Part shown: piece by piece, positions 5,631-61,334 of the stretch
Numbering within the stretch: the first letter of the stretch is position 1
Layout: every line of letters begins with the position of its first letter
Assembly (NCBI GenBank): GCA_009602735.1
Contig: WELA01003054.1
Coordinates: forward strand, 302,555-366,554
Direction of reading: 5' to 3'
From: Mesotaenium endlicherianum
Lineage: Eukaryota
Length of the DNA stretch: 64,000 bases
Notes under the pieces: generated by a model
What the model was told of the DNA's origin: nothing
The model's input: the letters and a program-made list of their open reading frames with translations, nothing else
Databases searched by the model: none
Translations under genes and position numbers: made by a program

Positions 5631-8061
5631 GTGCTTCTAACTCAGGACGACTTGGAGACCTTTGACTTCCAAAATGCGTTTTGCCACCTTTTGACGCTGC
5701 TTGGAGAAAGTCTCGAGCAGTCGTACCACGTGATCAGAATTGGTGGCAGTCTGTTGCGGCCACCATCTTGATTCTTGAGGCTTGCACTACCTGCTTCCGG
5801 CCATTTCCGGCTGACGCATGGCAGCATCTGGGTCTCGGACACTTTGGCACGCTCGACTTTTAATTGCTCACGCTTGCTCACACTGGCAAGGTCTTTCCAC
5901 GCTTTACCTCGAACTACATGGAATTGCATCATACTGGCATCGACGGGCATCAACCGGCATCAGCCTCCTATGCGGGTTCTGTCGGTATCCTCGTGACAGT
6001 GCATGGGCTTCTGCAGGACGAGTGAAGCGAGCATCGCAGCACTCCAATTAAAGAGCTGTGGCAGGAGTGCATGAGCACGAGAGTCCCACTAGCTTGGAAT
6101 CCACCACCCTAGTGTTGTGAACAATCTCTGAGGAAGAACAAAATTGGAGGCTGGCTGACTACGATGAGGGGAACTATGGACCTTTCAGATCACCCTTACG
6201 CTATAGATATTGTAGGCTAGCTTGTTTAGCTGGGGCTGCGACTGCTGGGGCTGCTGCAGTGCAAAGTCATCGGCAGGACAACTTAAGAATTGCGCGAGCA
6301 GCTTAATAACGTAGGCTATATATAAAATCCTGTGACAAGAAAAAATGTAATTAGCCAGCCAGGCCTTACCTCACAACAGGCCAACAACGGCTTGGGAGAC
6401 CGACCAATCGTGGCACCGTTAGTTTAGAGACACAAGCAATTGGGTCGCCTGTCTCGCTCATCCATCATACGGGCAGCGGAGTCAAAAGTCTTAAGCACCC
6501 ATGATAATGTTAGTCTAGGCTCTTACTACGTAGGCTTGTTTGAGTGATAATGGGGCTTTCTAGGCTCTGAGGTTTGCCTGCATTGAGCTAGTTGACATGT
6601 AGTTGTATTCTAAATATTTAGGCTGCTCAAGCAATTGGTACAAACGATGATCTAGGGAGCGTCATTCTACTCACTCGCATAATGTAGTGAACTACCTGTG
6701 AGGCATTTGATTCTGCCTTGAAAACTAAAAAATTATGAGTACCAGTTATACATTCAATCCTGCTTTGTGAAGTTTTGTGCGCTGACTCTGTATATATGAT
6801 TCTAAGTTTCGATGAATGGGGAAGCCTTCAACAAGCATGGAACCACTCCTTTCTCCACTTCACTTCATCCAGTCGATAAGAAAGTTTTGTGATGGAATGG
6901 ACGACTTTGCACTCCCGTTGGCTTCTTGGAAAAAGGACAAGTTGAAGAACCATCCTCTGGATGTGCAGCTTTTGCTGCTACAAGTTGTGGAAAGGTTCAG
7001 CAAAACAAGGAAGACATCCTCACATGTTGTGTGGTATGTTGTTCATAGTATGAGATAGTTGTAAAACGTGACCATTGTAATTCGGACTACCTCAACCATT
7101 TACCCAAACCAAAGAACGGCTTCATCCCTGCCCTCCACCTGGGGGATGACAAAGGTGCTCTACCAGACAACCACTGGTCATTGATTGGCTACCCAGAAAG
7201 GTTTCTGGATCCGCTTTCTTCCGTAGAGGGTGTTACCAGCTGGTGCGGGCAAGAGCTGAGAGAATTTAAGTTGCCAGGAGTGCTCTTGAGAGAGCAAAAA
7301 CTAGCCCAAAGTTTCACGGCCTCAAGGTCACCAGTCTCATCAGTGATGACACCCAAAAAAATCTCACAAGATGGTGGTGGTGGGAGCGCGAAAAGCCGCT
7401 GCTCTGCAGTAAGCTCAGTGGTAAACCCGGGTGGGAGCTCTCAATCATCAGCTTCGGGACCTGAGGCCAGGATCAGCTCAAATCGCTCCCGGGGGACTGC
7501 AGACACTGCCTCTTCCAGCCAGCCTTTGAGGGCATGCTGGGAATATCCTGATGCTGAAAACAGAGCAGGTTGCAGCATTTGGCGGGCTGGAGTGGACCAA
7601 GAGGGCGCTCTTTGAAGTTATTGCTGGCCAGTATGCATCGCCGCCCATGCATGCTCTCACGTTTTGAAGTCTGTGCCGCGTCTCGAAGGGAAGTACTTTG
7701 CTAGAGCTGGCAACAACCTGTGCTTCATAGCCTGGTGTAAAATTGCTCAACATCGTGACAACTTATTTCTCCATCATGGTGGCTGACTTGAACCTAGATG
7801 GAGGAGGCGAGTGAAGCTCTCTATGTCGTATCTTTGCTTACTTCTCGAACGCAAACTGTCCTCGAGTGACATGTGTGAATGGGGAGTGTGCTTGTCGTTT
7901 GATTCTAAACATTCTCCTTGGAGGGGGTCACTTTGCTGCAGATCCTGCACTTTGCAGCTCAGAAGGGTGCTGCGCTGATTGTTATCATGGCCAGCTTGCA
8001 TGATTCCCCCGGCATCTATTCCTCGTGGAGGTACGGATGCTGACTGACTGGAGGCTGCACG

Positions 8062-11000
8062 GTGCTCTCCCTTAAGAAGGTCCTTTGCTGGGCCAAAGTA
8101 ACATTTCTTGGAATGGCGGGACTTTTGCGGGTGGTGCGCGGGCGCAGCACAGAGGAGGTGGACTCTTTCAGTGTCGAAGAAATCCATAGGTGGAGCCAGG
8201 TGGCGCCTCCCGTGCTCCTCTCTGAGCTTCTGCGCCTCGTCCCGCTCACCTCAGCATCTCAGAAGGTGAGCTGCCCCCGTCTGGATGTCAACTGATCAGG
8301 GGCTACTCCAGCAATTTAAAAACATAATAGCTTCTTCATTCTTACATTTTACGTGCTATCTGGCCCTGGAAGTCCCCGACTGCACGTTTACAAGGTGCAT
8401 GAGGCCCAAGCTTTTTGCATTTGAAGCTTGATCCACCCGGCTGGTTCCCATGTCTGGCCTCTGCAAGTAAATTCTTTTAGGGCGGCCGTACTTCATCTGG
8501 CGCCCGAGCTCGAGCCCGAGCCCTCAGGGGGCGTTTCTGCACGTCACCTCTGTTCCTGCTCATGCTTGCTTTGCTATGTGAGCAGATTTTGCTGTGAGTC
8601 ACCTTGATTCCTGTGCATACTTGCGTTGCGGTGCAAACGCCGTGTCTCACCTTGTTTTATGTCATTGCTTTGCTGTGTGGGAAGGTCGCTGCCGGTCACC
8701 TCTCATGCTGTATGTAGCCAGTGTGAACAGGCATCACACACATGCACATCCCACTGCATGCTCCTGCAACCAGGGGACACCCGAGCTTGCACCATTTTCC
8801 CTCTGTGTCATTTACACTCAATTTGATATGGGAGTTGTTGTCGCAGTTGGTCAAATTATGCGGAAGAACTGCAGGAACTGGCTCGTGTTTAGTCATTGAG
8901 GAACTCGTCAACTCTAGCTGGACAACATGAGGCTGGGTTCGGGGTCCGAGGACATCCATGGGCTGTTGCCGTTGCGGCCACCTGGCACGAGCTCCTTCTT
9001 CTTCCCATTTCCCCCTCGCCTCGTCGGCCTACCCTCCCCACTTTCCGTCTGGCTGAGCTTTGCCGAGCTTGGCTCGCACTCGTCAGTTTATCGTGTCTCT
9101 GATCTCGCCGTCATTGCTTGCACCGTGCACGCAGAGGACGGCAGAGAAATGTGCACGGCCGAGTTTGAGAAGAGCGGCTTCTTGGAGGCCCGTCTGTCCA
9201 CCCAGGGCACGTACTCCCTGGTGAGCCTGCCAGCTGCTCCACGAACTCTCTGCAAGCCTCCGCCTTGTGTGTGGGTGCCCTCTGCTGGTCGCTGCGGACG
9301 GACTGACTGACAGACAGCTCTGACTGATGGGCTTTGCTTGCGCCCGATCGCTTGACCTTGTCCAGACGCCACATTGCACTGCCTTCTGTAGCCGTCATCG
9401 TGTGTGTCACACCTTCCGCTCATGTTTCAAGGCATGCATCACATTTTTCTGTTGGGCTGTGCAATGTGATTGATCTCAAGTCTGATCAAGTGCTTCATAC
9501 TAAAATCTATCTACCACGTGTTTGTTCTGAGCTACGCCCAGTTGCCCCTCTTTTTTAGCTGGATTGTGATGCGGGGTGAAGCAGGCCATTCAAAATGAGC
9601 GGATCGAGCTAGTTTCGCCCAACCCGTGGCTCTCATTTGCCTTGGCCTGAATTCCGCCCTATCGTGCGTGTGCCCACCATGACTTGCTTGCCCTGTGAGC
9701 CCTTCATGCCAAGATTCAAGACTGTGTGGTGCAGCGCACGCGGACAGACAAGCTTGCGCTTCAAAGTTTACGAGCGGCGACGGCCTGTGAGTGTGTCCTC
9801 TTGTGCACGAGCAGGGAGTGGCACAGGACAAGGGCAACACAGTGGCCCACAGGGAGCTGGGCAGCCAGAGGGTGCTGGTCATCAAGCTCCTGGGGTGCGG
9901 CAAGGACGACCTCGACGTGTTCTTCAGGGACGTGCTGCGTTGCGGGATCGTGATCGGCCTCTGCCGCTTCTGCAACTTTGGTGAGTCCGCGCAAGCTGGC
10001 CGTGTTCGGAGGTTTCACACGCGCCCCCTTTCAGCCTCTGGCTATGTGCAGCGTGAAGTATGTCACCTACAGGGCTGTCTGCTGTGTGCTGTCTCTACGC
10101 AGGAGGCTAGGTGCTGCTGCCTCAGTCTGATATAGTGTCCATCCCTACTCCTCTTCGCCTGTCTGTTGCAGTGCAGTGTCGTGCGTCGGGCTCTCGCTCG
10201 TTTTCGCGCACAGCCATGACCCCACTGTGGTTGCTAGTGATCTGATGGAGCACACAAGGAGCTGCAGACAAAGCAGACGCAACTGGAAGGATATTAAGTC
10301 TGTACCTCCGAGTCTCACCTCCGGCTGTGCCTCCTGTGCCTGAGCCCGTGAGTGAGGAACATGTGCCAAACAGGCCCCGGAACTTTCACCTGAGCCCAAG
10401 CCTGGCGTGCTCAGAAGAAGGTGCATTCAAATCTGCTTGGCAGGGCGCGGACAAGAAGCAGGCGGGCGCAAAAGCATTCCTCGTGGCTGTGCAGTCGACG
10501 GCCGCCTACGACGCGCAGCACCCCCCTCGGCAGCCAGCCTATCGCAATGAGCACTCTGTGCGTGACTACTTCGGCAACTTTGGCGGCTGCCCCACCGTAC
10601 GCCAAATGACCGCCAGGTGTGCGCGCGCACACACTCACGCCCTTGGGCCTCTCCACACTGCTGCATGTGGCGCGCAGGCTAAACATGCTATCTGTCAGGT
10701 GGAGCAAGCAAAGTTTGAGTGAGTGGAGAGTGTGCGTGAGCACGTGCAACACGCCTGCCCGTCATCCAGGTGATTTTTAGCGTCGAGATTTCAATCATTG
10801 AGCGGGAGGTGCATGAGGCCAGAAATTTCCCACGGAAGAGTGAAGGTACTCGCACCCATGCTCCCAAAGGGAGCGCACGTGCTGTCACTGTTCAGAAGGC
10901 TTGCACACATGTGTAGATGATTGAGACGGGGACCTGTGGCATGTTAACTTTGGAGCTTCAAGGCACGCAACGTCACGCAGGCCGCAAAGACATTGTGTTT

Positions 11001-14000
11001 TCCTGTCGGCCTTGTGACCCTCTTCCCATTTCTTCCCATTATGGTTCGAGATGGGGACATTCTGCAGGCAGGGCGTTGGGACAGGAAGCTTATGCGGGCA
11101 CAATGAAGATGCTCGACTTCATAATGCATGATATTTTTTTCTACCCCGGGACGAGCTAAGAATCTGTTGTCCGTGCCTGAGGCTACTGCTCTAGGTGATA
11201 AAGTCGTGTTTATAAAAGCTTCAAAATCATCGATTCGTGCAGTGACCGATTATAAGGGTTATCCTTCTCGTTCGCTTTCACATGTGACTCCAGGATTGGG
11301 CTGCTCTTCTCGTCGACCATGCCAATTTTGAAGCTGTCCTTTGACAGGATCCAGGTGCTGCCGGATATCGTGTGCGAGGTAGGCCTACCTAGCGCGACCT
11401 TCCGATACCTCTTTTTCATGCACACCCAGAATCGACGCCTCGTTGTTTTGTTGTCAGACAATAGTGCTCGTGGGAGTTTGGAAAGTGGATGCGCCATTCG
11501 GCATCATCTCCCGGGTACTGGCCTCTTTCCTTCGCGTGTGTCAGAGTCCAGGATGAATTTGATTGTGCGAAGATGAAGCTTGTTGTCAAAGGCTTTAGTG
11601 CAAAGAAACTCTATGTGCCTCTCCACTTCCTCAATCTGGTGTTAGACGTTACGACAAGACCTTGGCGTGGTTCGTCCCCCTAACCGGCCAGCGGCAGCCA
11701 AGAGGTGGGGACTTTTGCCACTCCGTGCCTGCAGGGGCCTATACTGGAGCTGTACAGATTGTAGATTGCGTTGGTGGCTGTAGATTGGGGAGAGTGAGGG
11801 GGTCAAAGCCCCGTGTGCATACTTGTCGTATAGGACGAGGCATATGCAGTTTTCGCAGAACTGCTGGGCAATATGTGGTGTGTGCGTGTGCGTGTGCGTG
11901 TGCGTGTGTGTAGGACGGGAGCCTGGCCACGGATGGCACGGGCCTTGTCCTGCAGGAGCTGGTGCCGAACAAGCACATTCTCTCGGGGCCAGAGTGCCCC
12001 ACTGGCGCCGATGGGGTTCTTTCTCTCACCCGCTCTCCAGCTCCCTCTCCCCCTCTCCTACTGCCTCGCTCTCCATCTCTCTTTTGGACCGGAAGAGTCG
12101 CAGGATGATGAGTTGCAAGTCACAGCCAATGGCATCTATTCTTCCTGTCCGTTGTTCTCTGCGTGGTGAGTGGGCGACTTTTATATCACGTCTCTGCACC
12201 ACAAGTGGACAGGGGCATGCGATTCTTCTGTGCGCGCGTGTGTGTGCTTTGAGTGCACGCAACTCCCAGGGAACTAGAGCTGCTACCGACGCTCCTGGTT
12301 AGTTACAGCATCATCAATGGCACACCAATGCAGCAGCTTAGCTCAATATTTGCTGTAAATGTTTTCACGTTTTCGCGCTTTCCTCGTTCCCTTTCCCTGA
12401 CGTTGCCAGCACTGAGTAGGTTGGTGGCAAGAGGCCTTGTGCTGTTCTTGGACATCCATGAAAGCAGCTGTAGCATGATTTGCAGCTGTATCTTTCCACA
12501 CGCGTTTGCAATTTGCCTTGCGCACACAATCAAGAATGTACTCATTAGGACGTGAGGGGAAAAAGTCCAGCAGAAAAGCCGTGTGTGTGTGTGTGTGTGC
12601 GTGTGCATTTGCGTGTGGGAGAGTGTTGCGCATGGGTTTGCGTGTGGGTGTGCGTGTGCGCGAGCGCGTGGGTGTGCGGAGAGCACTGATGCTTGAAGCC
12701 GAGTGACTGATGCTGCTGGGACACGCTGGTGCGTGCGGTGGTGTGGCGTCACTGGCGTGGCATGGCAGCTGGACGAGGAGGAGGAGGACGATGCAGCGCA
12801 GGCGCGGCCGTCGGTGCTGCAGGTGCGCGGCTACTGCCAGGGCATGGTCTTCAAGGGCACCCTGCTGGCCGTCATCCGCGTGAGTGGCCGTCACCCGCCC
12901 ACGCGCACGCAGAAGATCGCACGCCGTTCTCTCTTCGTTAAGCTCCATGCACAACCATCGGTGGTCAGCTTGTAGGGAGTTGTAGATTCACTGACTTGCG
13001 TGTGATGGTGATAGTATGTTATGCATGTGAGTGAATCAAGGGTGGCCACAATCTGCGGGGCTCGGGTTGGGATGTGGCGTTTGGGGTTCAGAACGCCTGG
13101 AGCGCACCTTGGAAGGTAGCGCACATTGGTGCCAGGTGTCACGTCGACATTGACGTGTCTCTCACGTCGGCTTGTGTCTTGCCAGTCTTGCTCGCGTGCA
13201 CCTGGGAATCTCGTGTGTGTGCGTGTATGGTCACGTGTAACTGAAAGGAAAACAGAGGAGCGGAGGAGGAGGGAAGGGGGGGGGGAGTATCTCACTGGAG
13301 GCACTGTTTATTCTCTAGGCACATGCGTAGCACCAAAGAAGTACAATCACGTCACACAATATGCAATGTGCGTCTTACTCAGGCATGGAGACATCCATAC
13401 ATTATTAAACCTACTAAATCAAAGGCGCTGCCCCGAGCGTGAATCTCTTACTCAGAGTGACCCAGTGATGGTGGTCATTGATGTTTGGGGGGGTGGGGGG
13501 GGNNNNNNNNNNNNNNNNNNNNNNNNNNNNNNNNNGGTGGGGGTGGGGGGGGAGGAGTGCGCAGATGCGAGAGGGGGTGCAAGAGGGGGTGCAGATACTC
13601 CTGAGAGAGTCCATGGTGAAGGTGCCTGCTTGGGAGACGGGCAGTGCGCCCCCTGCTGCCTCTCCTCTCTGGAGGTGCTCAACACCAGGTACGCCACTGC
13701 ATGCTCAATTGCTTGCTTGCTTTTGCGCCCCACCCCGCCCATGCACTTTCCCAGTGGTGCTATCGCTGCATGTGGCGCCTGCTTCTTGCTCTGGAGTCTC
13801 CTGCCGAGCTATGGTGACACCGTTGCTGGTGGCCCTGGCCCCCGAGTGAGGTCTCGCCTGACTTGGGTACGAGCTCCCATGCAACCTGTGTGCAACTGAT
13901 GGCTGTGAATGTGCGCATGTGTTGTTGTTAAACACGTCTGTGCTTGCTTGCTGTTGCCCCGTATCCAGCAAGATTGTCACGTTGTGCCCATTCAATGATG

Positions 14001-17000
14001 CGTGGGAGGAGGTCCTATGTTTTGGGGCTAGGGTTTTGAGCTAGGGTGTAGGGCGTGCAAGAGCGACCGTAAGCGAAGGACACTGTCAGATGATGTGCCA
14101 CATTGTCCACCTGCAGCTGTAACTGAGAGCAGCAGCTACGACAAATTTCTTGTGAATCCAACAAACATATATATACCCGCGCAGAAGTGCTGGCAGGGCC
14201 GCCAGACCCCCAGAGCAGATCTGCTCGGGCACGCTCCCTCGTCGCCAGAAAGAACCGCAGTCGTAGCAACAGCCTGAGGGTACTGGTGCTTGCAAGTGTT
14301 CTTTCTCCTGCTGTGCTCCCTGCTGTCAGCGGCACTCTCATTGCTAGGCCCAATCCGCAAATCCTTGTGCATGGTTGTGGCATTTGGGACGTCGTCGCCC
14401 TGCTCTCTCTCCACGTTCAGCTGCCTGGCTCCCGGGCAGAGGCCGCTGCCTGTCTTCGTAGCAGCCGCCTGCGTGTGCACCAGCACGTGCATGCATGCGT
14501 GTATACTACATGCATGCATGTGTGTGCATGCCACTTAACACAACCTCACCTGCTGCTTCTCCCTTACCCCTGCTGTGTTTGCTGCGTGCGCAGCCGGCCG
14601 CGGGTGCGTGACACCACGCTGAGTCGCACCCCTGTGTCCCTGCTCTGCCACGGAGGCGTGCCCCAGGAGTACTTTGTGGGATGCACCAAGAAGGCCCTCT
14701 CCGCCGTCAAGCTGGCCACCCAGGACCGCAAAGCTGCCATGAAGCGTGAGTTGGGGGGCTGCCAGCATTGCGGCTCTGGGCCCTGGCGGCCTTGCTGCCC
14801 CCTGTCTGACTGACCCCAGGGAGGCGGTGTAAGGCTGCAAGAGGGGCTCCTCTCACGCGCCTCCCTTGCCTCTGCCCCTTGCTGCCTTCCCCCTCTCGAG
14901 TCTCCGTTGCCCCCCTGGTGGATCGATCGAGCCCGAGCGCATCAATGAGTGGGAACGCATGGTATGCGTGATTGTGAAAGCAGTTTCTGTCAGCAGGCCG
15001 CACTCGGGGTATGTGCGCAAGCCTTGCGCCCAGCGCCCAGCATCGACCTGCTGACTATTGGGCATGCTTTGCGCATGCATGCAAATAGTCCTACCCTTCA
15101 AAAGGCTGTTCGTCTGACCCTGTCCCTGTCTCTCTGCCTCTCTGGCCCGTGACCCCGTGTCCCTGCCGCTGACTCTCTGACAACTGGGTGTCTCTGTGCG
15201 GGGGGGGGGGGGNNNNNNNNNNNNNNNNNNNNNNNNNNNNNNNNNNNNNNNNNNNNNNNNNNNNNNNNNNNNNNNNNNNNNNNNNNNNNNNNNNNNNNNN
15301 NNNNNNNNNNNNNNNNNNNNNNNNNNNNNNNNNNNNNNNNNNNNNNNNNNNNNNNNNNNNNNNNNNNNNNNNNNNNNNGGGAGAGGCGGGTGGGGAGCAT
15401 GCAGTGATGCGCGGCGGCGCGATGCATGCGGCGGCGGAGCTGGGCATGCGCATGCTGCTGAGCGGCGTGGAGCTGCGCGACCCCCACCTGCAGGGCCTGC
15501 TGCGCTCCAAGCAGAAGGAGCGCCTGCGCGTATGTAACATAGTCACAGACTCACGCACGCTCAGGGAGGCACGTGCCGGCACGCACATGCACGCATGCAT
15601 GCGCACACGCGCGCTTTTGTTGGTGTCAGAGCCGCTGGAAGGTGATGGGAGAATTTAGAAACGCGAGTATGCAATGAGTGGTAACTTCCAACTTGTATGG
15701 CATTGCAGCGATCAGACTGCCACTCGTCAGGTGTCGTCATGAAGCCGTATTTGACTTCAACTATGAGTTTCCAGCTGTAGAAAGAAGGCTTACTGTTTCA
15801 TAGTCTGGAACTTGTGGCTCTTATTGTCTTCAGGGAGGAGAACATCGCAGACCGTTGGAATTGCTTCATGCTCACACAAGTTCCACACCCTCTGGCTTTC
15901 GATCACATAGATGGATCGGGCCTGCAGTAGTACTCTAGGACTAAATAAGCAAAGATGAACCAACTTGGAATACCGGAAGGGGGGAGGATTTACACAAAGA
16001 AATTACAGGCCACCGCTACGCCTGTGCAGACCTCGCATAAAAATATGCATTTTGTAGCATGAATAACAGGACCGTTGAGTAACTCCACGCCGGCGACCAT
16101 TGCGACTCCTCACCAGTTGAAATACATCTCACAGCCTTAAATATGCCCCTCAAGGCTCACAGCACCGTCTTCACGTTGTTACATTGTTGCACCTTGATCA
16201 ACGTATGGCTGCGTTCTTGACAGCAGGAAGCGCACGCACGCTTGCATTTCCATCTTCGCGTGCTGCGATACACGCACGGAACCTGAGAGCAACTGCCGCA
16301 CCCAAGCGGGGCAGGTTGTCACTCACAGGATGAGACTCCTCATGATCGGGAGTTCCTCGCCATCCTTTCCATCTACATGTGTGATGTACTACCTGTGTGA
16401 TGTATGTGCAGAATCTGAGCAACTGCCGCATCCGGGCGGGCAAATCGCACTACCTGCTGGGCGTGGCCGACTTCACCGGCACCCTCCAAGAGGGAGAAGT
16501 CTTCCTCGTGCTGTGAGTGGCAAGCGCATGGCCGCACTCACGTTTAATCCGTGCTCCTCCGTGCGAAGTGATTGGTTTGCATGAGCCTTGCCCTCCTCCT
16601 GTGTTTATATGCGGAGGGCACAGTTGACCGTCGCGAGCCCTCCGCATGCATGTGCCAGCGCAGGCAAACACGGGCACGCACGCGACAGACACAATACGAG
16701 CACAGACACGACACACACACGCACACACACACGTGCTGCTTGTGCTGTCAATGACAGGTTATTTTCACACGTCCACTGTGCAGGGAAGAATAATGTGTTT
16801 GTGTGCCGCTAACGTGTTTGTTGGGCTGGAGAATGGTAGTGCTACGCATTGTCTTAGGACTTATATGACTTTGAGATGTTGCCTGTTCCAAAAACATCCA
16901 CATTCCTTTGTGGGTACACAAAAGGGGGCCATGAACTCTAAATACATTGCTTATCATCACTCCCTGCCCCTTGCCGCTGTATGCAGAGACAACGGGCCCC

Positions 17001-20000
17001 TCGCCGGCGCCTGCCTGGTGCACCACTACCCGGCCGTCCAGATGGCGAACATCCGCAGGGTCACGGCTGTGGACTGCCCGGAGCTGCGGGAGTTCCTGCC
17101 GCCCGATGCGCGCCACTTCATTGCCTTCTCCACCAGGGGCAAGCGATCGGAGCCGGACAAGATGGCAGGCGGCGACCTGGACGGGGACTGCTTCCTCGTG
17201 ATGCGCGACCCGCAGGCGCGCACGCTTCCTCCCCCTCTCACGCTTTCCTTCTGATTGCTCCACCTCCCAACATCCTCTCACCGGCCGTGCTGGACATGTG
17301 TGGGCATGCGTGCCTCTTTGTGCGCGTTGAGTGTGCAGTCTGTCGCTGCGCGTGTGTGTGTGTTCTCTCTCTCTGTGTGTGCGGGTGTTTGTGTGTGTGT
17401 AGTACACTTGGTGGGACGGGGCCGCAGGGGAGAGGAGCAAGGGAAAGGGAAGGATTTTTGCTTTTACCCCAGGGCCCAGAATGCAAACGGCACCAATGCA
17501 TGAGCTTGCTCCTCTGCGACTGAAAACTCGTCTTATGCTCTGGGATGCATGCGGGTGCGCACGCGTGTGCGTGCTCGCGGGGTTGAGTGTATAGATGCAG
17601 ATGACTAGCACGTTCAAGCCAAGCGACGACTTCCCGCCAGCAGATCTGGAAGGGCAAGATGGCGCCGGGCCCGACGCCCTCGGGCAAGCCAGTCCCGCCA
17701 TCAAGGGACAGCGGGAGATCATGATGGAACTCTTCCTGGAAGGCTGCTACTCTCAGTACGCGCCCGCATGGCCTCCTCTTTGTAGAGGCAGCTAGGCCCT
17801 GCCTCTCTAAGCGTGCACCGCTCAACAGGATTTACTGCAATCCCCGTGTAGCTAGGCATCAGCCGGCCAGCATAAGTGTGTTCAATTTCGCTTGTGTGCA
17901 GATGAGGCGCGTGTAGAGCTGCCAGGGGAGCTGCTTCGCTCGTGCTGCTTTTGTAATCTGCACGAGAAAAAATGTGCATCCTGTTGCTGCTGCACGCTTC
18001 CCATTGATTGCATGTGCAAGCTAGGTGGGCGGAGTACACGTGGAGGGGGGCGGCAGGCTCGCTCGTCGCAGCAGTGCATTGCATGCAGTGCGACATCCTC
18101 ATCCTCCGGCATCGATCTGCTCGGGAGGGCGACCAGCTGCAGCCATGTTCAGAGCAAGCGCGAGCGCTCTGCACTTCATGACCATCACAGGCATGCATGC
18201 ATGTGCCCATGCGCCGGAGTTCGTCCGGAACATTTGCTTCAAAGTTTTTCACAGTTCCTCCTCTGCATGGTGCAACGAGCGCAGGAACAACATTGGGCGT
18301 GCCTTTGTCCTGCACACAGCGTTCCTCGACAGGTGGGGCCCACACGACCCGCGGACAATCCGCATGGGTTTCTTGTACGAGAAGTCTCTGGACGCCGAGA
18401 AGACCGGCAACAAGGTACCGCCAGCCCCAGCTCTTGAACGGCAGCCATGGCTCTGAGGGTCATGCTTGGTGGAGGGGGCTCTCCTTCTCTTCTCTTGACC
18501 TCCTCCTCCGCGTTGCAAGCGTGCAATCTTGAGCAGAATCGCTTTCACCATCTGCTGATTGTGAACATTGTTGAGTTCTAGGTCCTTATAATAATATAAG
18601 TGACTGCAGTGAAACTTTCCTGCTGAGCCAAGTTCGTCCCCTAGGCTCTTCTTTAAGACCCCCTTGGCCCCAATTGCACACACACGCGCAGGCGGGCGCG
18701 CGCGCACACACACACACACACTCAGACACACACACGGACAGGCAATTTCAGGACAGTTTTGTTTCTGTATAGATTATGTGAGTATAACCCTTGACATAGA
18801 CTCTGATCTCCGGAAGTAAGAAGGAAAAGTGATGTCCGCCCACCACACACCCCGCGGTCTTGTCGTCTGGGGGGCGTGCAGGTCGACATCCCCAAACAGC
18901 CGCAGTCCGTGTGCTTCCCCCACTACATGGAAATGGAAGGCAGCTACAAGTCTCGTGAGCTGCCCGGTGTCATCTACGACCTTGTCATGGGATCTATTCC
19001 CACACTCCATGCTAACGGTGGGCCTTCTTGTTCGCGTTCTCCTACTTTGTGCATGTTTGCATGGGCTTGGCCTCACAGCATGCAAAATATTGCTCTGGGG
19101 AGAGTCGCTACACAGCATGGTGTGCATGGGTGTGCTTTTATCTACCAATGCTTGCGTGCGTGTGTTTTGAGTGTGCATGTCCTCGATAGGGAGAGTGTGT
19201 ATGAGTGTGTGTGAATAGGACATGAATCACAAACTTGAGTGAAAGCAGCTTTATGCGCATAGGTTGAAAGAGTGCTCGTATGTGCGTGTGAGTTCGTGAG
19301 GGTGTGTGTACACGTGCATGTATGTCTGTGTGTGCCTATGCGGGCGTATCCAAGATCACGTGCACTGTGAGCTAGAGAGACAGGCGGAGAGTGGCAATGT
19401 TTGACTGGAATGCGACCCACCTTTCCACGTTCCGTTGTGGTGCAGGGCCTGAAGTACAGTGCGTGCGACGTGGGCGTGTTTGTGCTTTTGTGTATATGTG
19501 CACAAGTTTTCCATTTCATAGTGTTGCAGGGCCTGAAGAACATTGTGGGCTGCGTGGGCGTGGGTGTGCGTTTGTGTGTGCATGCACAGAAGGATGCAGA
19601 AGGGTGTTGAGGGACAATATGCTCGTGAAGTTCCACGTTGACCACCCCATCCCTTACGACCTACAGGACGTGATTGGGAACGAGATGAAGACATTCAATG
19701 TGAGGCTCGCACGGATCCCCCAGCTCAAGGGCAGCCCTGAGAGGGAGGCCATGCTGGAGCAGAATGAAGTGTGCTACCGGGAGGTACACAGCACATCCAG
19801 ACCTGCCACCGTCGCTCCTTGCCACACCGCAAGATAGCTTCTCGCAAATTTGACGTCTATGGACCTTGGTCGTTATACTTTGCAGGAAGCGGCCTGGCGC
19901 GGATTTGGAGCGCAGGGGGTCACGGTTGAAGCAAACTGTTGTAGACTCGCGTCTATGACCGTCTCTTCAATCTTTTTCTGTAATCTTTTTTTGCAACTGG

Positions 20001-20764
20001 CCTTAGAGGTCCTCACTCCAATCTGCAGAGTTCTTGGATCTCGACGAGTGAAGAGTCAAATGGACTGGTGAAGACTTTCGAGACGTTCTTCTTGATGTCT
20101 TTAATTGAAGGACCTCGGAAGTGTACTATGAATTTTGCTTGCACGACGTATGTACTTGGATGATGGTGACAATCTGTTTCTTTCTTCTGCTGGACCTTAT
20201 ATATGTGTTGAGTTTGTGCGACAAGGTGATTTTTGGTGGTTGTCACACACGCACACAAACACACACGCGCACATACACACACACACTCACACACACTAAC
20301 TATGTCATAAGCAGCATGATTTGCCATCAAAATGGAACCTATTCTTGCTGCTCTCTTTGTGCGTGACTTTTCAGAACATTATTGGGGATTGGTCTCCCAC
20401 CAAGGATGTGCCCACGCCTCCGTTGGAGCTCCTCAAAAGGGCGGCGTTTGTCTACGTCCATGGCTACGACGAGGTCGAGAAGCGACTCTGGAAGAAGTCA
20501 ATAGAGGAGTATGCCGACTGCGGGGGTGCCTGCTCGTTTGAGGAGGCATTCATGAGCATGAGGGCACCCTGCATGCAGCGCGTGTGGGGCGTGTTCGGGG
20601 ACCTCCTGTGCTCCATCAAGGCGTCTCTGCAGGGGCCGGCGCTCATCTCATGGCCGGCCTGGCTGAGCATTGCCGGCCCCTCGTGTGCTGCGCTTGAGCC
20701 GTCTGCGACTTTCAGCATAGGCGATGTCGCATCTGCCGGTGCCGCTGAGGTGTTTGAAGATTGA
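8062..20764 (+). CDS. Eukaryotic RNA-dependent RNA polymerase (RDR, gamma-clade-like), multi-exon; possibly a pseudogene
   Basis: Phase-consistent exons: ?-8265, 8918-8984 (tentative), 9135-9220, 9815-9980, 10421-10616, 11294-11378, 11914-12015, 12769-12879, 13565-13688 (internal frame break), 14594-14745, 15405-15529, 16412-16512, 16987-17215, 17601-17755, 18285-18414, 18882-19017, 19590-19783, 20375-20764. Motifs: ARIGLLFSST, TDGTG, QVRGYCQGMVFKGTL, RESMVK, SLEVLNTS, GGVPQEYF, LLGVADFTGTLQEGEVF, MAGGDLDGD (DLDGD at 17174-17188), LDAEKTG, FPHYME. Start codon unresolved. Confidence 0.88.
11878..11910. repeat. (GTGTGC)n/(TG)n microsatellite abutting an RDR splice acceptor; similar CA/TG tracts occur in many introns (e.g. 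12581-12600, 18706-18735)
   Basis: Directly visible simple repeats. Confidence 0.8.
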
Positions 20765-26720: not shown

Positions 26721-29252
26721 CTACATCTTTCCAAAGCCACTACCAGTGGAGCTGGTGGTGGTAGGCCCAGTAGTCGAGTTGCCAACAACAGGTGCTGTTG
26801 TGTACTCGGCAGTCGTGTATTCAGTGGTTGGTGTAGACGTGTTGGTCAAGCCAGTAGTGCCAGTGGGAGAACTAGTTGTCTGTCCACCTTTAGGCCCCCC
26901 AATGACTGCCTCTTTCACATACTGTGCTGTCTGTGAGAGGGTCTCACCTGCAGACTGAAGAACCGACTGTGTGTTCCTCTTTGCAGCCTCTGCAGTGTCA
27001 CTTGTTGCGTGCCCTGCCTGCTGGCTCTGCTGGCCTACCTTCTCCTGTGTAGAGTCCAGTGTCTGTCTCAGACTATCACCTGCTCTGTTACCTTCCTGTG
27101 CTGAGAAGTCTCTTGCCTCACCAGCCTTGTTCTGAGCAAGCCCAATAGTTTCCTTCACACCTTGCACCACTCCTCCAAGGGCCTGAACTGTCTGCTCATA
27201 GAGATGTCCTGTCTTCTCCTTTGTTGCCTGGTAAGTGCTCTGCGTCGTCTCCACCGTTCTATCCTTGGCAACCTGAGCTGTATCCGCTGTGTAATTCTTA
27301 GCATCAGTTAGGACCTGCTTTGTTTTGTCAGCAGCTGAGTTGTAGGTCTGACCAGCATAATCCTTGGCACTTCCATATGCCTGGCTGGTCTTGTCAGCAG
27401 TGACATCATAAGCCTGCTTACTTTTCTCAGCTGTAGCATCATAAGCCTGCGCAGCATAGCCCTTCGCTCCCTCATATGCCTGCTGGCTTTTGTCAGCAGA
27501 GACATCGTATGCTTGCTTGCTCTTGTCAGCAGTAGCATCATACGCCTGCCCAGCATAATTCTTTGCACCCTCATACGCCTGCTGGCTCTTGTCAGCAGTG
27601 ACATCATATGCTTGCTGGCTCTTGTCAGCAGTCACATCATAGGCTTGCTTGCTCTTGTCAGCAGTAGCATCATATGCCTGCCCAGCATAGTCCTTTGCAC
27701 CCTCATACGCCTGCTGACTCTTGTCACTGGTCACATCCGCTGCTTGCCTAGACTTGTCTGCCGCAGCATCAGCTGTCTGGCCGGTGTAATCTTTGGCACT
27801 GTCATATGTCTGCTTGCTCTTGTCAGCTGCAGTATCCAAAGCAGATGATGTTTTATCCTTTGCTTGCTGAGCTGAATCACCTACTTGGTCACGTGCCTGC
27901 CCATAACTGTTTTGGCAGACAATAAAACCTAAATTAGATATATATGCTCTTTGACTGTTTACAAAGCATCGTACACAGACAGCATAAAACTGCTTTTGAG
28001 CATTAATGCAGACTACGGCAGTGCAAATCAAGCAGACGAATGGGCAAAATGTTCAGATACATGCAACTATCAGCTATCAACTTCCAGCTTTTAAGCTCTC
28101 ATAAATAACACAAAGTGTACTAAAAGACATAACAAGACAAGGAAGTTGTCAATCCACGCCTAAAATGATGGTGAATTTTTTTAGTGAAAAGTTTACCTCT
28201 TTGACGTAGTGTCCTGCGCCGAGCTCAAGTAGTCACCAGTTTGGTCTTTGCCCTTATTGTACTGCTGGGACAAATTGTCCTGGGCAGAGTCTAAGTACTC
28301 TCTAGTGTTTCCCTTTGCCTTTTCATAAGAATCAGCAGCAGAGACCTTGAGTTCTCCAAGCTTGTTTGCTGCTGCATCAGCGTAACTTCCCACCTTGTCC
28401 TGAAACGCAAAGCAGAACTCACATCAGGTGTATTCAGATGGAAGTACTTAACTACATAAGATGAGTCACAGCCATTCCACCAACATGTAAAGAGGACCAT
28501 GTAAAGAGAACGTGTGTTTACCTTAGTTTGCTCCTTTGTGTCCTGAGCAGGACCCTTGTATTCCTCAGTCTTGTCTGCAGCATATTGCTTTGCCTGCTCA
28601 TATCTTCCTTGAGCACCCTGCAACACGTAAAGAATCGAAAGTATATCAATTAGAAGGATAGCATACTCTGTACATCAGATTTTCATGAGAGTCTTGCTTT
28701 AAGAGAAAGTACACATACACCGTATTCCTGGCAAGCCCCACGCTACAAACTACAGGAGAGCTGCAACTTTTCCCACGTTGAGGCTTCCATGAACGTTACC
28801 TGCAGAGCCTCCTGGGCCTTTGCTTGGGCAGCATTGCGGTATTGACCTATGGTCGCATTGGTGGCATCATAAGCAGTCCCAGCCTGCATATGTGACAGTA
28901 ATTAGTTAGCCTGGGTAAGTATTAAATTTATACAACAGAAGTAGTCCTCTGTCAGGTCTATTATATAACACGCTAAATGACATACATATTGTAGACTCTG
29001 GTATCGGCTGCCACTACAATCAAAAAGCATGATTTGACACAGTAACTATGGCCAAGGTATAACTGTGCCCCAAAACAATGCAGATGTCCTGAACCGAAAT
29101 GAACCCAATTGGGAACCGGCACCACTAAACGTTTCTGCATTAAGTAATCATAAGGAAGATATGAGAAAATTATAGCGAACCTGCTTGTTTCCCTCTTCAG
29201 CAGCCCCCTTCGCCTGCTGGTCAAAAGGCTTCGACTCTTGGTAAGACGACAT
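26721..29252 (-). CDS. Late embryogenesis abundant (LEA group 3 / LEA_4-like) hydrophilin, ~546 aa, 5 exons
   Basis: Exons 29252-29181 (MSSYQESKPFDQQAKGAAEEGNKQ), 28883-28800, 28617-28522, 28399-28197 and 27906-26721 are all GT-AG and join in frame. A/K/Q/D/T-rich, with tandem 11-mers AYDATADKSKQ / AYEGAKDYAGQ / AYDVTADKSQQ. Confidence 0.85.
27330..27830 (-). repeat. 33-nt coding tandem repeat array (LEA 11-mer motifs)
   Basis: Recurring units such as gcctgctggctcttgtcagcagtgacatcata at 33-nt multiples. Confidence 0.8.
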
Positions 29253-31370: not shown

Positions 31371-33861
31371 GGGGAACTGTCTTTCCTGACTTTCGCATTG
31401 TTCTCCTGACTTAGCAAAGAAATGTTGGACATCAGGTGGAGCAAGAGCATCCAGATTGTGCACTCTCTGGATGTCTATATTGCTGATGGTCCCCTTTATT
31501 TGGTTGTCAGGCATGCATAGTGAATCCAATTCAGCAGGACCCATAATACCTGCTACGAGGGCAGCTAGTGACGACTCACTATCTCTAGCATCCTCACAGT
31601 CAGTAGACTGGATTACTGACTGTTGCTGTCTTTTAAAGGCTGGTCTTTTCTCTCGACCTTCGGAAGGTGCTTGACTGGACACTGTTCTCTGTAGTGGCCC
31701 AACTGCCGACAATGGTAGCAAATCAATTTTGATGAGGCTGGTCTCGGCTTAGTCCTACCACCACCTCTTCCATAGCCGCCTCGAGAGAAACCACCTCTAC
31801 CTCTAGACTGAATAGCATTGTACTCATACTCATATTCATCACCCTGATTATCCTCAGCCTGGTCTCCTTCAATTGCATTGTAGGAACCGTGGGGCTTTTT
31901 GACAATCTTAGACACCAAAGCATTACTCTGGCGCTTGTGATTGAACTGCTGCTGATCCCAGGCATCAGCATCCTGGATCAAGTTAGCCAGTTTCTCATAC
32001 TTCTTTTCAGCGAAATGACCAGAGACTTCGGATTTCAAGCCATACCTGAAGTACGCTATCCTACACCGTTCTGGCAAGTCTGGCTGTTTCATCATATTCT
32101 CCTGGAACTTTTGAGCAAACTCAGCAACTGAAGTGGCCTGCTTCAGTGTCAGGGAGATCATCCCATAGATAGCTTTCTCCTGCTGGTTGATGACATCAAA
32201 CTTCTCATGCAACTTCTCGACAAACTCTACCCACGTAGGGTCACCGAGTTGCTGAGCCTTACGCTCTCCTTTCCAGTATAGCCACCAGTCTGCGGCACTG
32301 CCTTTCAGTATTGCACCAGTGTGCCTGACCTTCTTGTGATCTTGCAGTTCTAGGTAGTTCTCCAGCCACTGCTCAACATCCGCGAGAAACTTGATCAGGT
32401 AATATTTTCTGTTTCCCTCAGGATCATAGTCCTGGGGAGGTTTCGGCTTGGGCTTACTAGGCCCTCTGCCACCACCAGTAGTGGTTTGAGACCCCAGTNG
32501 TAGTGGTTTGAGAACCCAATTGGTCTCTGTCCTGCAGTAGAGACATTATGATTCTTTTGTCCTCCTGTTGGGACTGATACATGGTCGCCATTTGAGACTG
32601 CATGTGAACAAACAATGCTCCCAAGTCTACACTTTGGAGTGGGAGTCTAGCAAATGCAGCAGCAGCAGTGGCATCTACTTGGTGAGTAGTGTCCTCAACA
32701 GTCTCTCTCGCTCCTGCAGCAGCAATTCCTGTCGCATTCAGCCGGTCACGAATTTGACCTAGGGGTACATTGAGTTGTACAGCAGGAGGTGGGTTCATAA
32801 CATTGGCCCTTGATGCCATAAGTTCTTCGACAGTGTGCTCGTCAGCTGGCTGTCCTTCCCTCCTTTCTGTATCTACAGCGGCCAATGCTAATTGTTCAGC
32901 TTCTAATCTGGCTCTCCCTTCCTCAGCTTGCTGTGTTGCGACTGCGGCAATAGCAGCTGCCTCATCTGCAGCCTCTCTAGCTGCAGTATCTGCCACTGCT
33001 TCAGAATAGGTACGGGTTTCCGCTACATGGCTTTCCGCCTGGTTTTCGACATTCTCATTATCCTGGTTCTCCATGTCTCGAGAGTTGCTAGTTTGAGACC
33101 TTGTCCTTACCATACAAAGAAGACTGTGATAACAGCTCCGATACCACTGAAATGAATCGACTTACCAAATAGACGATTAACAATTATTAAAGATCTTTAT
33201 ATCAGCAAGTAATCTTTATGGCATTTTTCATTAATTGATGAAACAGCAAAGGATAACACACTAGCAGTGAGTAATACTCGTAAGTCAAATGCAAGTAAAC
33301 TAGCATAAATAATGCAATCAGTAAACTCATACATACAAGGTTAGAAGACAATGCGTATCAATGGCTTCTCGCCTTGGATTCAGCGCTCTCTTAGTAGGCG
33401 GTACAAGAGAGTTGGCCTCGTTTCCGAATGCCGAACTCGAGAGCAATGCCTAGCATATGTACATGGAATGAGTTTACTGTTCAACGGCCAGTGCGATGGC
33501 ACTGCCTACCCGGGAGTTAACCACGTTAGTAGGACCTTGGTTAACCAAATCCACCGCCATCTCCCATCATCCCGAATCGCCTTCCATCATAGGGATGTCA
33601 TCTGGCCTTTCATCTAGCATACCATACTTAGATGCATATTGAGGCAGTTCGCTGCTACCGAGTACGGAAGTCAGCTGGCTGTCAAAGAATGAGTCAGCAA
33701 GCTGACTTGAGTTGACTTCAGCCTGCTGCCCCCGGCTGAGTCCTTTAAACTGATAATCATATAAAGTCGAGCAAACTCAATACTACATAAAGTTCAGCAA
33801 ACTCAACTTAATTAACTATTATAATTAAATGAATAATATAGCTACCCATATACTGATTACA
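31371..33861 (-). mobile_element. Family A copy A2, truncated: 5' LTR (33148-33861), PBS, gag and start of pol; interrupted by A0 at 31370/31371
   Basis: gag 33113-31613 is near-identical to A1 gag (zinc knuckle CYHCRQLGHYREQC). The break near 32499 coincides with an N and a duplicated overlap. The LTR abuts family B RNase H sequence at 33862. Confidence 0.88.
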
Positions 33862-37017: not shown

Positions 37018-40000
37018 TTATGGAGGGACTCCAGCGGCCCGAAGGTGGAACCGTGTCAACGCCCCTTTGGCATTGGTCAAGTGGTCCTTAAACTCCCAAG
37101 TGTCCCCAGAGGCATCGTAACCCTTCCATCGAATGAGGTATTTCATGACATATTTAGACGATCGACGGACCGAGCGAGCGTCTAAAATCTCATCGACCTC
37201 ATATTCCTCAGGGTCGCCGTCCCGGACAGCGGGGACCGGTCCCGGTTGGACAGGGAACCGACCTGTGAACAGTGTATCACCTTTGATGTACGGTTCCAGG
37301 AAGGAGACATTAAAGACCGGGTGCCCCTTGTATTCAGCTGACATGTTCAGTTTGTAAGCATTCTGACCGACACGACGGACCACCGCATATGGACCGACCC
37401 AGACAGGGCCAAGTTTTTTCTTGAGCACACCAGGGAGGTACAGGTGCTGAGAATGCAGTTTGACTAAATCCCCCTTGGAAAATGTCAGTTCCCGACGGTG
37501 TTGATTAGCGTATTTTTGTTGGTTTTCTTGGGCCGTGTGCAAGTTTCGTTGGACTTCTGACAGGGTGTCAGCAAACTCCTGAGTTAACTGGAGGGAGACC
37601 GGGTTGTCAATCCCTTCAGGGTGAGTTAAAGATTCCCCTAGCACATCTAAAGGAGACTTAGGGACTCTACCCAGGCTGAGTTCAAAAGGAGTCTTGCCCG
37701 TTGACGCGTGCACCGCACTGTTGACCGCAAACTGAATTTGAGGCAACAGGTCATCCCAATTATCTTGTTTTTGGTTAATATATGCTCTCAACACCTCCTG
37801 CAGAACTCGGTTAGTTCTTTCAGTCTGCCCATCGGTCTGAGGGTGGTTTGCTGTGCTGAGCAGCTGTTTGACTCCCATTAACCCCATTAAAGCTCTCCAG
37901 AACTTAGAGGTGAATTTTGAGTCTCTGTCTGAGATGATATTAGAAGGGAGCCCATGTTGGCATACTACATGGTTGTAAAACTGTCTCGCTGTTTCGAGTG
38001 CAGTCACTTTGACAGTTGTGGGGATAAAAATGACCATTTTTGTCAGTTTATCCACGACTACCAGTATTGAATCATGCCCGTTGGCAGTTCTTGGTAGTGA
38101 GACCACCCAGTCCATGGATATAGTTTCCCAGCGTCCCGCTGGGATGGGTAGCGGTTGCAAGAGACCTCCGGGTGGTGTGTGCCGAGATTTATTTCTCTGA
38201 CACTGGTCACAGGACTTGACATATTTCAATACCTCCCGGGGTAACCCCTTCCAATGATAATGTTTTGCCAATTTGCCAACAGTTTTGGCCTGCCCCAAAT
38301 GTCCACCCAGGAGACTGTCATGAGCTTGACTCAGTAAGAGAGACCTTATTTCCAAATTATTAGGAATGACCAGCTTCAGCCTGCCTGAAGTGGTTTCAGA
38401 CACCCAGACCCCCCCCTTGAGCTTATACCCGAGTGCAGTAGCACAATACATACCAGTAGTGGGGCTGGGCTCAAATGTTGGGTCAGAAAAGTAGGCTTTC
38501 CTAAGTTGTTCAAGGAAGGACTTTTTCACCTTTAGTGAAGTGAGTGCACACAGGACTTTATCTACAGTATGCTGACTAAAGTTCCTTTCTTGCAAGTCAG
38601 GTCTTCTAGAGAGTGCATCAGCAGGATTCAACTTCCCTGGTTTGTAGTCGATCTGGACTTGGAACTGCTCCAGCATCTGGCTCCAGCGGTTCTCCCTCCT
38701 CGACAGCTTGGACTTCTTCTGAAAGTGGGTCAGAGCTAGATGATCTGTAATCACCTTAAAAGCTTTACCATGTAAGTATGCTCTCCACTGTTTGAGTACA
38801 TGAATGATAGCTAGCAGCTCTTTATCATGCACTGAGTAATTAATCTCCGCTGGATTAAATTTCATAGACTCATACAACACAGGATGCCACTCCTGCCGTA
38901 CCTTACCATCCTTTGTGGTTTTGTCAGCAGGCTGCAACAAAATAGCACCCATGGCAAAATCAGAGGCATCAGTAACCACCTGCACCGGTTTGCTGGGGTC
39001 ATACACGGCTAGCACTGGGGCAGAACAAAGGGCATCTTTAAGGGTCTGGAAGGCAGCCTGCTGCTCTTCCCCCCACACATACCCGATGTCTTTCTTAGTA
39101 AGGTCAGTCAGTTTACTGGCCTTTGTGGAATAATTCTCAATAAATCTCCTATAGTAGTTAGCCAACCCGAGGAAGGATCTAACTTCAGAGACAGACTGTG
39201 GTACTGGCCAGTCCCTTATGGTCTGGACTTTCTTAGGATCCACACTGATGCCCTCTTTACTGACAACGTGGCCTAAGAATTCAATACTTTCCTTAAAGAA
39301 ATCACACTTGCTCATTTTAGCATACAAGTGATTTTTCCGCAGAGTGTCCAGCACTTTCTTTAAGTGTTCAGTGTGCTGAGCTTCATCTTTAGAGAAAATT
39401 AAAATATCATCCAGGAAAACTTGCACAAACTTATCCAAATAAGGTCTGAAAATGTCATTCATAGCACCCATAAAGGTAGCAGGAGCATTAGTCAGTCCAA
39501 ATGGCATCACGTTGAACTCATAGTGTCCATAACGTGTGCGGAAAGCAGTCTTGTGTTCATCCCCCTCAGCAATTCTGATTTGATGATAACCACTCTTGAG
39601 ATCTATCTTACTGAACACCTTAGCGCCAGACAGGGTATCAAGCAAGTCCTCGATTCTGGGTAAAGCATACTTGTTCTTTACTGTAATTTTGTTCAGGGCT
39701 CTGTAATCCACACACATCCGCATGCTGCCATCCTTATTCTTAACAAATAAGGGTAGGTGCGCCGTAAGGTGATTTACTGGGGGAAATGTAACCATTTTCC
39801 TCAAGCTCTGCAATCTGTGTTTTCAATTCCTCGCTCTCCACATAAGACAAGCCATGAGTGCGTTGCCAGGGTGGCTAACTCCCAGGTAATAAATCAATCC
39901 TATGATCCACTTCCCTCTTAGGGGGTAGTCCTGGAGGCATATTAAATACATCCGTGTACTGAGCAACAATGTTTGCAGCAGTAGGGTGCTCCGGAGGGTG

Positions 40001-40828
40001 TACCTTTTTCTCAACCACTTCTTCAGGTTGAGGAGGTACCTCTCTTTGCAGCAGACAGAAAATTCTGTCTTCCTTCTGGTTCCAGCTTTTGACGAACTCC
40101 ATTGCATTCAGCAACTTGCATCCTTCTGGAAGCCTCTTCTTTTCCTTCATTTGCCATCCACACAGGACAAGAGGAAGAGCACTGGTGGGTGCCAAGTCAG
40201 TCTGCCCATCACTGGCTCCTCTCACTTTAACTGTACCTCTGCTCCAACACACTTCAGCTTGATGTCTATTAAGCCAGGACCTGCCTAGCACGAGATCATA
40301 AAAGCCAGTGTTGAGTACCTCAAATGTAAGCGTTTCAGTTAGAACTGCAATGCCAGAACCTAACTGGACCTCAATAGGCTTGGTTATAACTCCTCCCGGG
40401 ATACTTGAGGCATCTCCAAGGAATATTTTTCTATTCCCTTGGGTGACAGTAGGCAGCCTTAGCCGCTTAACTAAGTCCTTGTGGATAAAAGTATGTGACG
40501 CCCCTCCGTCAACAAATGCCCTCACCTTCCTACCTGCAATCATGCAATGCAGTAGGATAGGGGGGACTGTCTTTTCCTGACTTTCGCATTGTTCTCCTGA
40601 CGTAGCAAAGAAATGTTGGACATCAGGTGGAACAAGAGCATCCAGAGTGTGCACTCTCTGGACGTCTATATTGCTGATGGTCTCCTTTATCTGGTTGTCA
40701 GGCATGCATAGTGAATCCAGTTCAGCAGGACCCATAATACCTGCTACGAGGGCAGCTAGTGACGACTCACTATCTCTAGCATCCTCACAGTCAGTAGACT
40801 GGATTACTGACTGTTGCTGTCTTTTAAA
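37018..40828 (-). pseudogene. pol: A1 pol (protease, RT, RNase H, integrase, chromodomain) with a premature stop and a 1-bp frameshift
   Basis: Protease [23 protein letters not shown]; RNase [15 protein letters not shown] integrase plus GPY; chromodomain [11 protein letters not shown]...[16 protein letters not shown]. In-frame TAG at 39875-39877 (PGS*PPWQR). Extra base near 39751 ([12 protein letters not shown]). Confidence 0.92.
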
Positions 40829-47631: not shown

Positions 47632-48491
47632 TACGTTCATCAGTTTCCCAAGTTCATGCAATTTATATGGACAATCAGAAGATTAGGGATTGCAAGCTTT
47701 CAACAGCCTGAAATGCGTTCACCCGCACGGCCATAATGGCACAACAATTTCGTCCTCATTCCTAGCAAACGCGTAAGGTGTGGCGTAGAATTGAGTCCTA
47801 TTGTAGTGATTTGAGTTATTATATATTAGTTTGCATATATTTTAATGTTTTCAAATATATTTGGAGTAGTATTGTGTGGAGTCAAGTGTGAATAGGTACT
47901 CTAGTAACTTGGTTCATGTCCTTTGAACCTTCTAAGGCATTTTCGAAGTTAGAGGAAAGACCTAGAAGAACTCCATGGGGTAAAAGTCAAATGTGCCATT
48001 TTTAGGTCAAAAGAACATGTGTACATTATTCTAGAAAGAGGTGGCAAGTTTTGGGATGTGTTGGATGCCAACACATCAACATACACTTTCCTAGAAATTA
48101 CTTATGTAGCAAGTATATAAACAAGAGCTAGAACATAGAAAGACATTCGAGAATCACTCTTGTGCTTGCCAAACTCTAGAAATATATTAACTTTCAAGAA
48201 GCCATCTCTCTTTCAAGAAGCTACCACTTGTGTTCAAAAATCCTTGTCTTGAATAGATAAAGTATTCTGTTTTACTAAGTACTTTATCTATCTGTTTCAC
48301 TACAGTGGTATCGGAGCTAGGCACTTTGGTAGCACAAGAAGATGGCCGATCCTCAAGACCAGCAGCAAGCTTTCGAAGGAAGCCCTTCCCTTCCAAGACA
48401 CCCTCCTCCAGCGTCGATGGGAGAGCCCACTCAAGAAAATCTGCAATAACAAGAAGCACCACAAGGAGGAGTACACCCTCCTCCAGCGCCG

Positions 48492-58843: not shown

Positions 58844-58889
58844 ATTCCCCCCAAGCTCTTAGTCTGCAGCTGATAATGCTACCGCTAGC

Positions 58890-61140: not shown

Positions 61141-61141
61141 G

Positions 61142-61334
61142 TTGCTTATGTATGAGTATACTGATGGCATGATTGATGCTCGTTTACTTGCATTTGACTT
61201 GGGAGTATTGTCCATTGCTAGTGTATTGTCTTTGCTGTTAAATCAGTTAACGAAAAATACCATAAAGATTTACTTGTTGATATAAAGATCTTTTATTAAT
61301 TGTTAATCGCCTATTGGTAAGTCGATTCATTTCA
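61142..61334 (+). mobile_element. Truncated family A LTR end (opposite orientation)
   Basis: ttgcttatgtatgagt...ggtaagtcgattcatttca is the reverse complement of the first ~190 bp of the + strand A LTR copies. Confidence 0.85.

Follow-up and report, generated by a model that had tools for sequence, protein, structure and literature searches.

RNA-dependent RNA polymerases (RDRs) produce double-stranded RNA for Dicer. Synthesis depends on second-barrel aspartates and on basic residues of the first barrel, which supplies the invariant Q736/K743/K767 (PMC1750930); the roles of the DxDGD aspartates and of the first-barrel residues are described in PMC1750930 and PMC9508822, and the arginine of the so-called Pro-gate loop binds the ribose 2'-OH (PMC9508822). 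Proteins of the RDR3 clade have already been reported in green algae and in all land-plant lineages, and their function is described as still largely unknown (bioRxiv 10.1101/2022.01.18.476847). The DFDGD form of the active-site loop has been given as a mark of angiosperm RDR-gamma (PMC3610679). For the zygnematophyte Mesotaenium endlicherianum, four RDRs were filed as ‘RDR-Algae’, on long branches and with low support, in a list that contains no RDR1/2 or RDR6 of this species (Wang et al. 2021, PMC7994812); ME000480S07862 is an ‘RDR-Algae’ entry in data S3 of that study.

The window, i.e., the whole 64,000-nucleotide stretch of M. endlicherianum DNA analysed here, contains one RDR copy only. 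Its closest protein is ME000480S07862 (P0002; hereafter the paralog), to which the catalytic exon is 77% identical (E 5.5e-31) and the read-through window protein 59% identical over 642 aligned residues. A search with the catalytic exon returned no identical protein, and the window gene is most likely a second paralog beside ME000480S07862; at a guess, it is ME000480S07859, a neighbour of the paralog by identifier. Comparison with P0002 yielded a gene model of approximately 18 exons on the + strand (7551-20764), with sixteen GT-AG introns and one GC-AG intron (17216-17600) that is supported by four RNA reads. The features of the locus are as follows:

7265..7549, + strand: low-complexity stretch resembling the N-terminus of the paralog (tblastn with P0002 residues 8-135, 22% identity); no RNA depth
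7551..7630, + strand: predicted exon 1, in-frame ATG start and GT donor, 67% to P0002 137-160; without RNA confirmation
8148..8265, + strand: predicted exon 2
9135..9220, + strand: predicted exon 3, 86 nt, one base fewer than in the paralog; no RNA joint listed
9815..9980, + strand: exon 4, with TVAHRELG (at 9839) and GIVIGLCRF (at 9944); RNA-confirmed donor
10444..10616, + strand: exon 5, with KAFLVAVQ (at 10471) and DYFGNF (at 10564); RNA-used acceptor out of frame (5 reads, 2 runs), stop at 10548
11294..11378, + strand: exon 6, with IGLLFSST; placed by homology, its joints absent from the listed RNA joints
11914..12015, + strand: exon 7, with DGTG (at 11932), equivalent by motif to QDE-1 D709; predicted donor
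12769..12879, + strand: exon 8, with QVRG and FKGTL of the first barrel; RNA-confirmed donor
13565..13688, + strand: exon 9, 124 nt; RNA-confirmed at both ends (6 and 8 reads)
14594..14745, + strand: exon 10, with GGVPQEYF (at 14652); the uninterrupted 3' frame begins here
15405..15529, + strand: exon 11; RNA support at both joints
16412..16512, + strand: exon 12; RNA-confirmed acceptor
16987..17215, + strand: exon 13, catalytic barrel; GC donor
17024..17032, + strand: Pro-gate loop H-Y-P, opening HYPAVQMAN (at 17024), with His in place of Arg/Lys (QDE-1 R962)
17174..17188, + strand: DLDGD metal-binding loop
17601..17755, + strand: exon 14; RNA reads
18285..18414, + strand: exon 15, with DAEKTG; RNA reads
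18882..19017, + strand: exon 16, with FPHYME (at 18915); motif match and RNA reads
19590..19783, + strand: exon 17; RNA reads
20375..20764, + strand: exon 18, to the stop codon, with WGVFGDLLC (at 20585); motif match and RNA reads

The RDR motifs quoted in the original prediction are real: ten of them, including DLDGD, were matched within single exons, all on the + strand, while ARIGLLFSST, SLEVLNTS and RDPQMTSTFKPS span introns and were recovered after exon joining, the last of these straddling the GC-AG intron. Given the E value of the catalytic exon and the collinear order in which the window exons align to P0002, these motifs are not a matter of chance. The RdRP-domain assignment of the window copy is made via these ordered exon matches, P0002 itself matching PF05183 with an E value of 1.6e-61 and carrying no RRM or PH domain in the Pfam scan. 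The start of the feature had been placed at 8062, which is intronic, and homology in fact starts upstream, in exon 1 and the N-terminal-like stretch before it. Assembly of the spliced protein recovered the expected motifs, but not all of them in one mRNA reading frame.

Transcripts, which had been proposed as a means of confirmation, demonstrate that the RDR gene is transcribed and spliced: RNA reads from three runs of raw reads and one of contigs support 10 of the 17 introns, and the remaining seven are placed by inference. Reads connect the 3' exons with exons 8-9, so that the upstream sequence lies on the same mRNA. Reads matching the paralog, recognized by loose ends and base differences, are present in two of the RNA runs; near the active site, the window copy and these paralog-type reads differ at nine bases, six of which are synonymous. 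The database model of P0002 seems to be mis-spliced, as it is without the RESMVK..LEVLNT segment that is also present in the window copy, and without the post-DLDGD residues and the PHYM exon, both of which are shown by reads.

The test for a two-barrel RdRP, one open frame over both barrels, failed: no single frame of the spliced mRNA covers both, and the stops at 10548 and 14620 precede the catalytic barrel. Four frame breaks were located. The first (near 7550, i.e., 7545-7562, where the stretch 7265..7549 lies in another frame than exon 1) and the second (in exon 3) emerge from comparison with the paralog, have no RNA joints and can be bypassed, by the ATG at 7551 and by an alternative AG (exon start 9137) that would restore the frame, respectively. 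The third lies at the joint 9980|10444, where five out of five reads, from two runs, take the out-of-frame acceptor and the shifted frame runs into the stop at 10548, with P0002 homology in the other frame (6/12 versus 0/12 identities). None of the listed RNA joints uses the in-frame AGs at 10415, 10418 and 10421 upstream of exon 5. As a matter of splice choice, break 3 cannot be an assembly slip; a homopolymer slip at 10470-10473 was also rejected as its cause, because the paralog homology is in the other frame already from 10444. The fourth break lies within 13625-13668 of exon 9, in which RESMVK and LEVLNT occupy separate frames that splice choice could join only through mini-introns of 17 or 23 nt, and it leads to the stop at 14620. 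No indel is listed in the exons of breaks 3 and 4, at a listing threshold of three reads from two starts and a low read depth (about 6-7 in run X9, estimated from binned depth), with 34 further loose read ends beyond the listing.

The DxDGD loop and the first-barrel D, Q, R, K and K are all present in the window exons. Aligned via the paralog, which gives the numbering, H-Y-P of the window copy corresponds to QDE-1 R962-S963-P964. At the Pro-gate position, 112 of the 114 aligned rows have R (83) or K (29), the exceptions being His, found in the window copy only, and Ala in P0048. The original prediction had noted that the usual (K/R)NP..H.GD is altered to HYPAVQMAN, which holds, and the alteration has two components: Q-x-A-N in place of H-x-G-D is common to the window copy and the paralog and thus represents a lineage trait, whereas the change from Arg to His is private to the window copy, the paralog having R-Y-P, and fits decay. 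The H-x-G-D element has also been lost in P0021 and P0048, which are sister to the zygnematophyte pair, the latter protein having DMDGD as well as the aforementioned Ala.

Our main reading, with a probability of about 0.72, is that the window holds a transcribed and spliced zygnematophyte RDR-gamma duplicate, whose DLDGD loop is the common form among seedless streptophytes, and which has likely been disabled recently and would provide no working enzyme; family placement, motif distribution, transcription and the two frame breaks on RNA-confirmed splicing are its directly supported parts. By analogy with other two-barrel RDRs, the ancestor would have turned single-stranded into double-stranded RNA for Dicer. 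Following gene duplication, ME000480S07862, which we assume to be intact, would have retained this ancestral job, while the window copy would afterwards have undergone a shift of the exon 5 acceptor, the loss of a base in exon 9 and the loss of the Pro-gate arginine, and its transcripts would end before the first barrel is complete. Branch lengths are 0.28 for the window copy and 0.33 for the paralog, and departures at 72 conserved columns number five and four, respectively; relaxed selection at conserved columns was rejected for want of a clear excess. The similar branch lengths and the retention of conserved columns point to long selection after duplication, followed by recent loss. The break-free 3' part could still be under selection.

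The foremost alternative, which we consider unlikely, is that of an intact, working RDR-gamma paralog, in which the break in exon 9 would reflect either a slip in the assembly or an allele specific to the strain, and a minor, in-frame splice form would be translated. Short homopolymer runs are found at or close to all four breaks, as with many assembly slips, in-frame acceptors exist, the catalytic and first-barrel residues are kept, and transcription and splicing are seen in all three raw-read runs. However, run X9 lists no indel at a depth of about six, every read across the exon 4-5 joint is out of frame, and the Pro-gate arginine is gone. Moreover, two long retrotransposon ORFs in the window (934 and 1229 codons) and the 1612-nt 3' part of the gene are all unbroken, which argues against frequent assembly indel errors. 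It is conceivable, at the very edge of what we would entertain, that other strains or minor in-frame isoforms make a full-length RDR-gamma with a His gate and an altered sugar selectivity, possibly extending to deoxynucleotide addition; the sole basis of this notion is an analogy with archaeal PolD, whose steric-gate His sits on a similar loop (PMC7708050).

A second and highly improbable alternative is a truncated, non-catalytic product of the open 3' half (first ATG at 14739) that would regulate the sister enzyme or serve as its decoy. It draws on the distribution of the breaks (four in the 1045-nt 5' part, none in the 3' part) and on an RNA depth that rises toward the 3' end of the gene. 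A 3' bias is, however, usual in RNA-seq libraries of this type, and the 3' exons are tied by reads to exons 8-9 of the same mRNA. Such a product would furthermore be missing the first barrel with Q736/K743/K767 (PMC1750930).

From 198 core-matching sequences, 114 were retained in a first tree after partial rows and isoforms had been dropped, followed by trees of 51 and 28 rows; these trees are unrooted, contain no mosses, hornworts or chlorophytes and no named Arabidopsis RDR1/2/6 or QDE-1, and their alpha labels derive from the Pfam domains and names of the matches. Among the 120 of 279 matches listed in the final homologue search, which were mostly from seed plants, no moss, hornwort, Klebsormidium or chlorophyte sequence was present. 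All three trees pair the window copy with P0002 as its sister (support 100; 100/100 under the mixture model), and the two group with Closterium, P0021, P0048, Chara and land plants. The streptophyte RDR-gamma (RDR3/4/5) clade received a support of 83 with FastTree, 95/88 in the 51-row tree (22 rows, LG+G4) and 100/99 in the 28-row tree (16 rows, mixture model). Membership of RDR-alpha was rejected, since forcing the Mesotaenium pair together with 14 alpha-side rows is 115.5 log units worse (p-AU 2.5e-6). The maximum-likelihood analysis called for in the original prediction thus places the protein in RDR-gamma rather than nested in RDR-alpha, and its suggestion of an early-branching lineage stands in the form of a gamma-type RDR whose algal lineage diverges ahead of land-plant RDR3/4/5. 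The Mesotaenium ‘RDR-Algae’ pair accordingly consists of RDR3 clade members, and the window locus is a new, minor member of this known clade, likely a dead duplicate. In the absence of RDR1/2 and RDR6 from the published Mesotaenium list, ME000480S07862, and not the window copy, could be a handy test gene.

Trees of the N-terminal and C-terminal halves both retain the gamma clade (SH-aLRT 95 each), and because the two halves agree, an alpha/gamma chimera was rejected. The DYFGNF...ARIGLLFSST segment had been described as alpha-like, a description that does not hold: a segment of this type is common to Closterium and Chara gamma proteins and, as the half-trees (including the N-terminal one) keep the gamma clade, it is, judged from these alignments, an old feature of such RDRs. 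A separate early-branching or alpha/gamma mosaic lineage serving an uncharacterised small-RNA pathway is a very improbable and largely refuted alternative, for although the zygnematophyte group (with P0021 and P0048) is long-branched and has lost H-x-G-D, and the ‘RDR-Algae’ label was given to long-branched, poorly supported proteins (Wang et al. 2021, PMC7994812), both halves are firmly gamma, alpha grouping is rejected, DLDGD is general among non-seed gamma proteins, and no evidence of such a pathway was found for this frame-disrupted copy.

After P0002, the search returned five Closterium proteins and then mainly land-plant RDR3/4/5. The Closterium RDRs (P0005-P0009) and Chara braunii CBR_g52061 (P0029) share with the Mesotaenium pair the gamma clade, DLDGD and the F-x-x-F...R-x-x-L-x-F-S-x-T segment, but are only ~32-36% identical to the paralog and keep the His of P-x-x-H. 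Land-plant RDR3/4/5 proteins (Arabidopsis RDR3a/b/c, tomato Ty-1/Ty-3) fall in the same clade and have N-terminal and core segments in common with it, whereas in seed plants most of them have DFDGD and R/K-x-P-G-L-H-F-G-D; the 19 exons of Ty-1 (PMC3610679) are close to the approximately 18 of the window gene, a likeness that is not diagnostic. RDR-alpha (RDR1/2/6; maize and Arabidopsis RDR2 structures) and Neurospora QDE-1 share the two-barrel RdRP core and the DxDGD loop, but match the paralog weakly (E about 3e-8 to 2e-7). Another of the four ‘RDR-Algae’ proteins, ME000353S05912 (P0139), lies on the alpha side in our trees and, at 3411 residues, is a fusion of an alpha-side RdRP with DEAD/ResIII helicase domains and a poly(A)-polymerase-like domain. 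RdRP and helicase are also fused in P0095, and P0075, a Protostelium RdRP, has a chromodomain at its N-terminus.

The original prediction regarded DLDGD as unusual for a gamma RDR, and this is not the case, so that the outcome which it had itself named as refuting it, routine DLDGD among algal gamma RDRs, has come about: DLDGD is present in each of the 16 gamma rows from named non-seed streptophytes (Mesotaenium 1, Closterium 5, Chara 1, liverworts 3, lycophytes 2 and ferns 4, two of which represent one gene), while P0021 and P0048 of the algal clade have L and M at this position. Among 114 seed-plant rows, including a few close relatives, F is found in 102, L in seven and Y in five; Ginkgo, Cryptomeria and Welwitschia have F, and L occurs in several angiosperms, i.e., Amaranthus, Shorea/Rubroshorea, Syzygium, Juncus and Dendrobium. 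These sequences are most simply explained by a change from L to F on the seed-plant stem, followed by reversals to L, and the locus, as part of an algal gamma lineage, does bear on when DFDGD arose, as had been proposed. Protist rows adjoining the gamma clade have F or Y and QDE-1 has Y, indicating a labile position, so that DFDGD is taken as a seed-plant trait within streptophytes only and these rows do not reveal the ancestral state of all gamma RDRs. Being absent from all 16 non-seed rows and from 12 of the 114 seed-plant-type rows, DFDGD does not define the clade and is unsuitable as a recognition mark for RDR-gamma genes. A full-text literature search, in which the listed papers were judged by title and the start of the abstract and which did not extend to subscription papers, listed none that describes DFDGD as a seed-plant trait; PMC11194755 was set aside as not relevant, the DFDGD mentioned there belonging to Pol IV/V.

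Scanning of 30 of the 198 listed long ORFs revealed no other silencing gene in the window. Downstream of the RDR gene lie two Ty3/Gypsy-type retrotransposons, at 37018-42330 (- strand) and 48450-53206 (+ strand), both with gag, protease, RT, RNase H, integrase and chromodomain, their pol ORFs being those of 934 and 1229 codons mentioned above. Partial copies of this type occur at 31613-33161, 43892-44506 and 60463-61242, and repeats of at least 300 nt, in three to six copies, are probably LTRs. The first 6000 nt of the window hold several overlapping long ORFs without Pfam matches, which are probably repeats. A 443-codon ORF at 26721-28052 (- strand) has a sub-threshold LEA_4-like repeat match, and a short ORF at 58599-59024 (- strand) a partial PHD-finger match.
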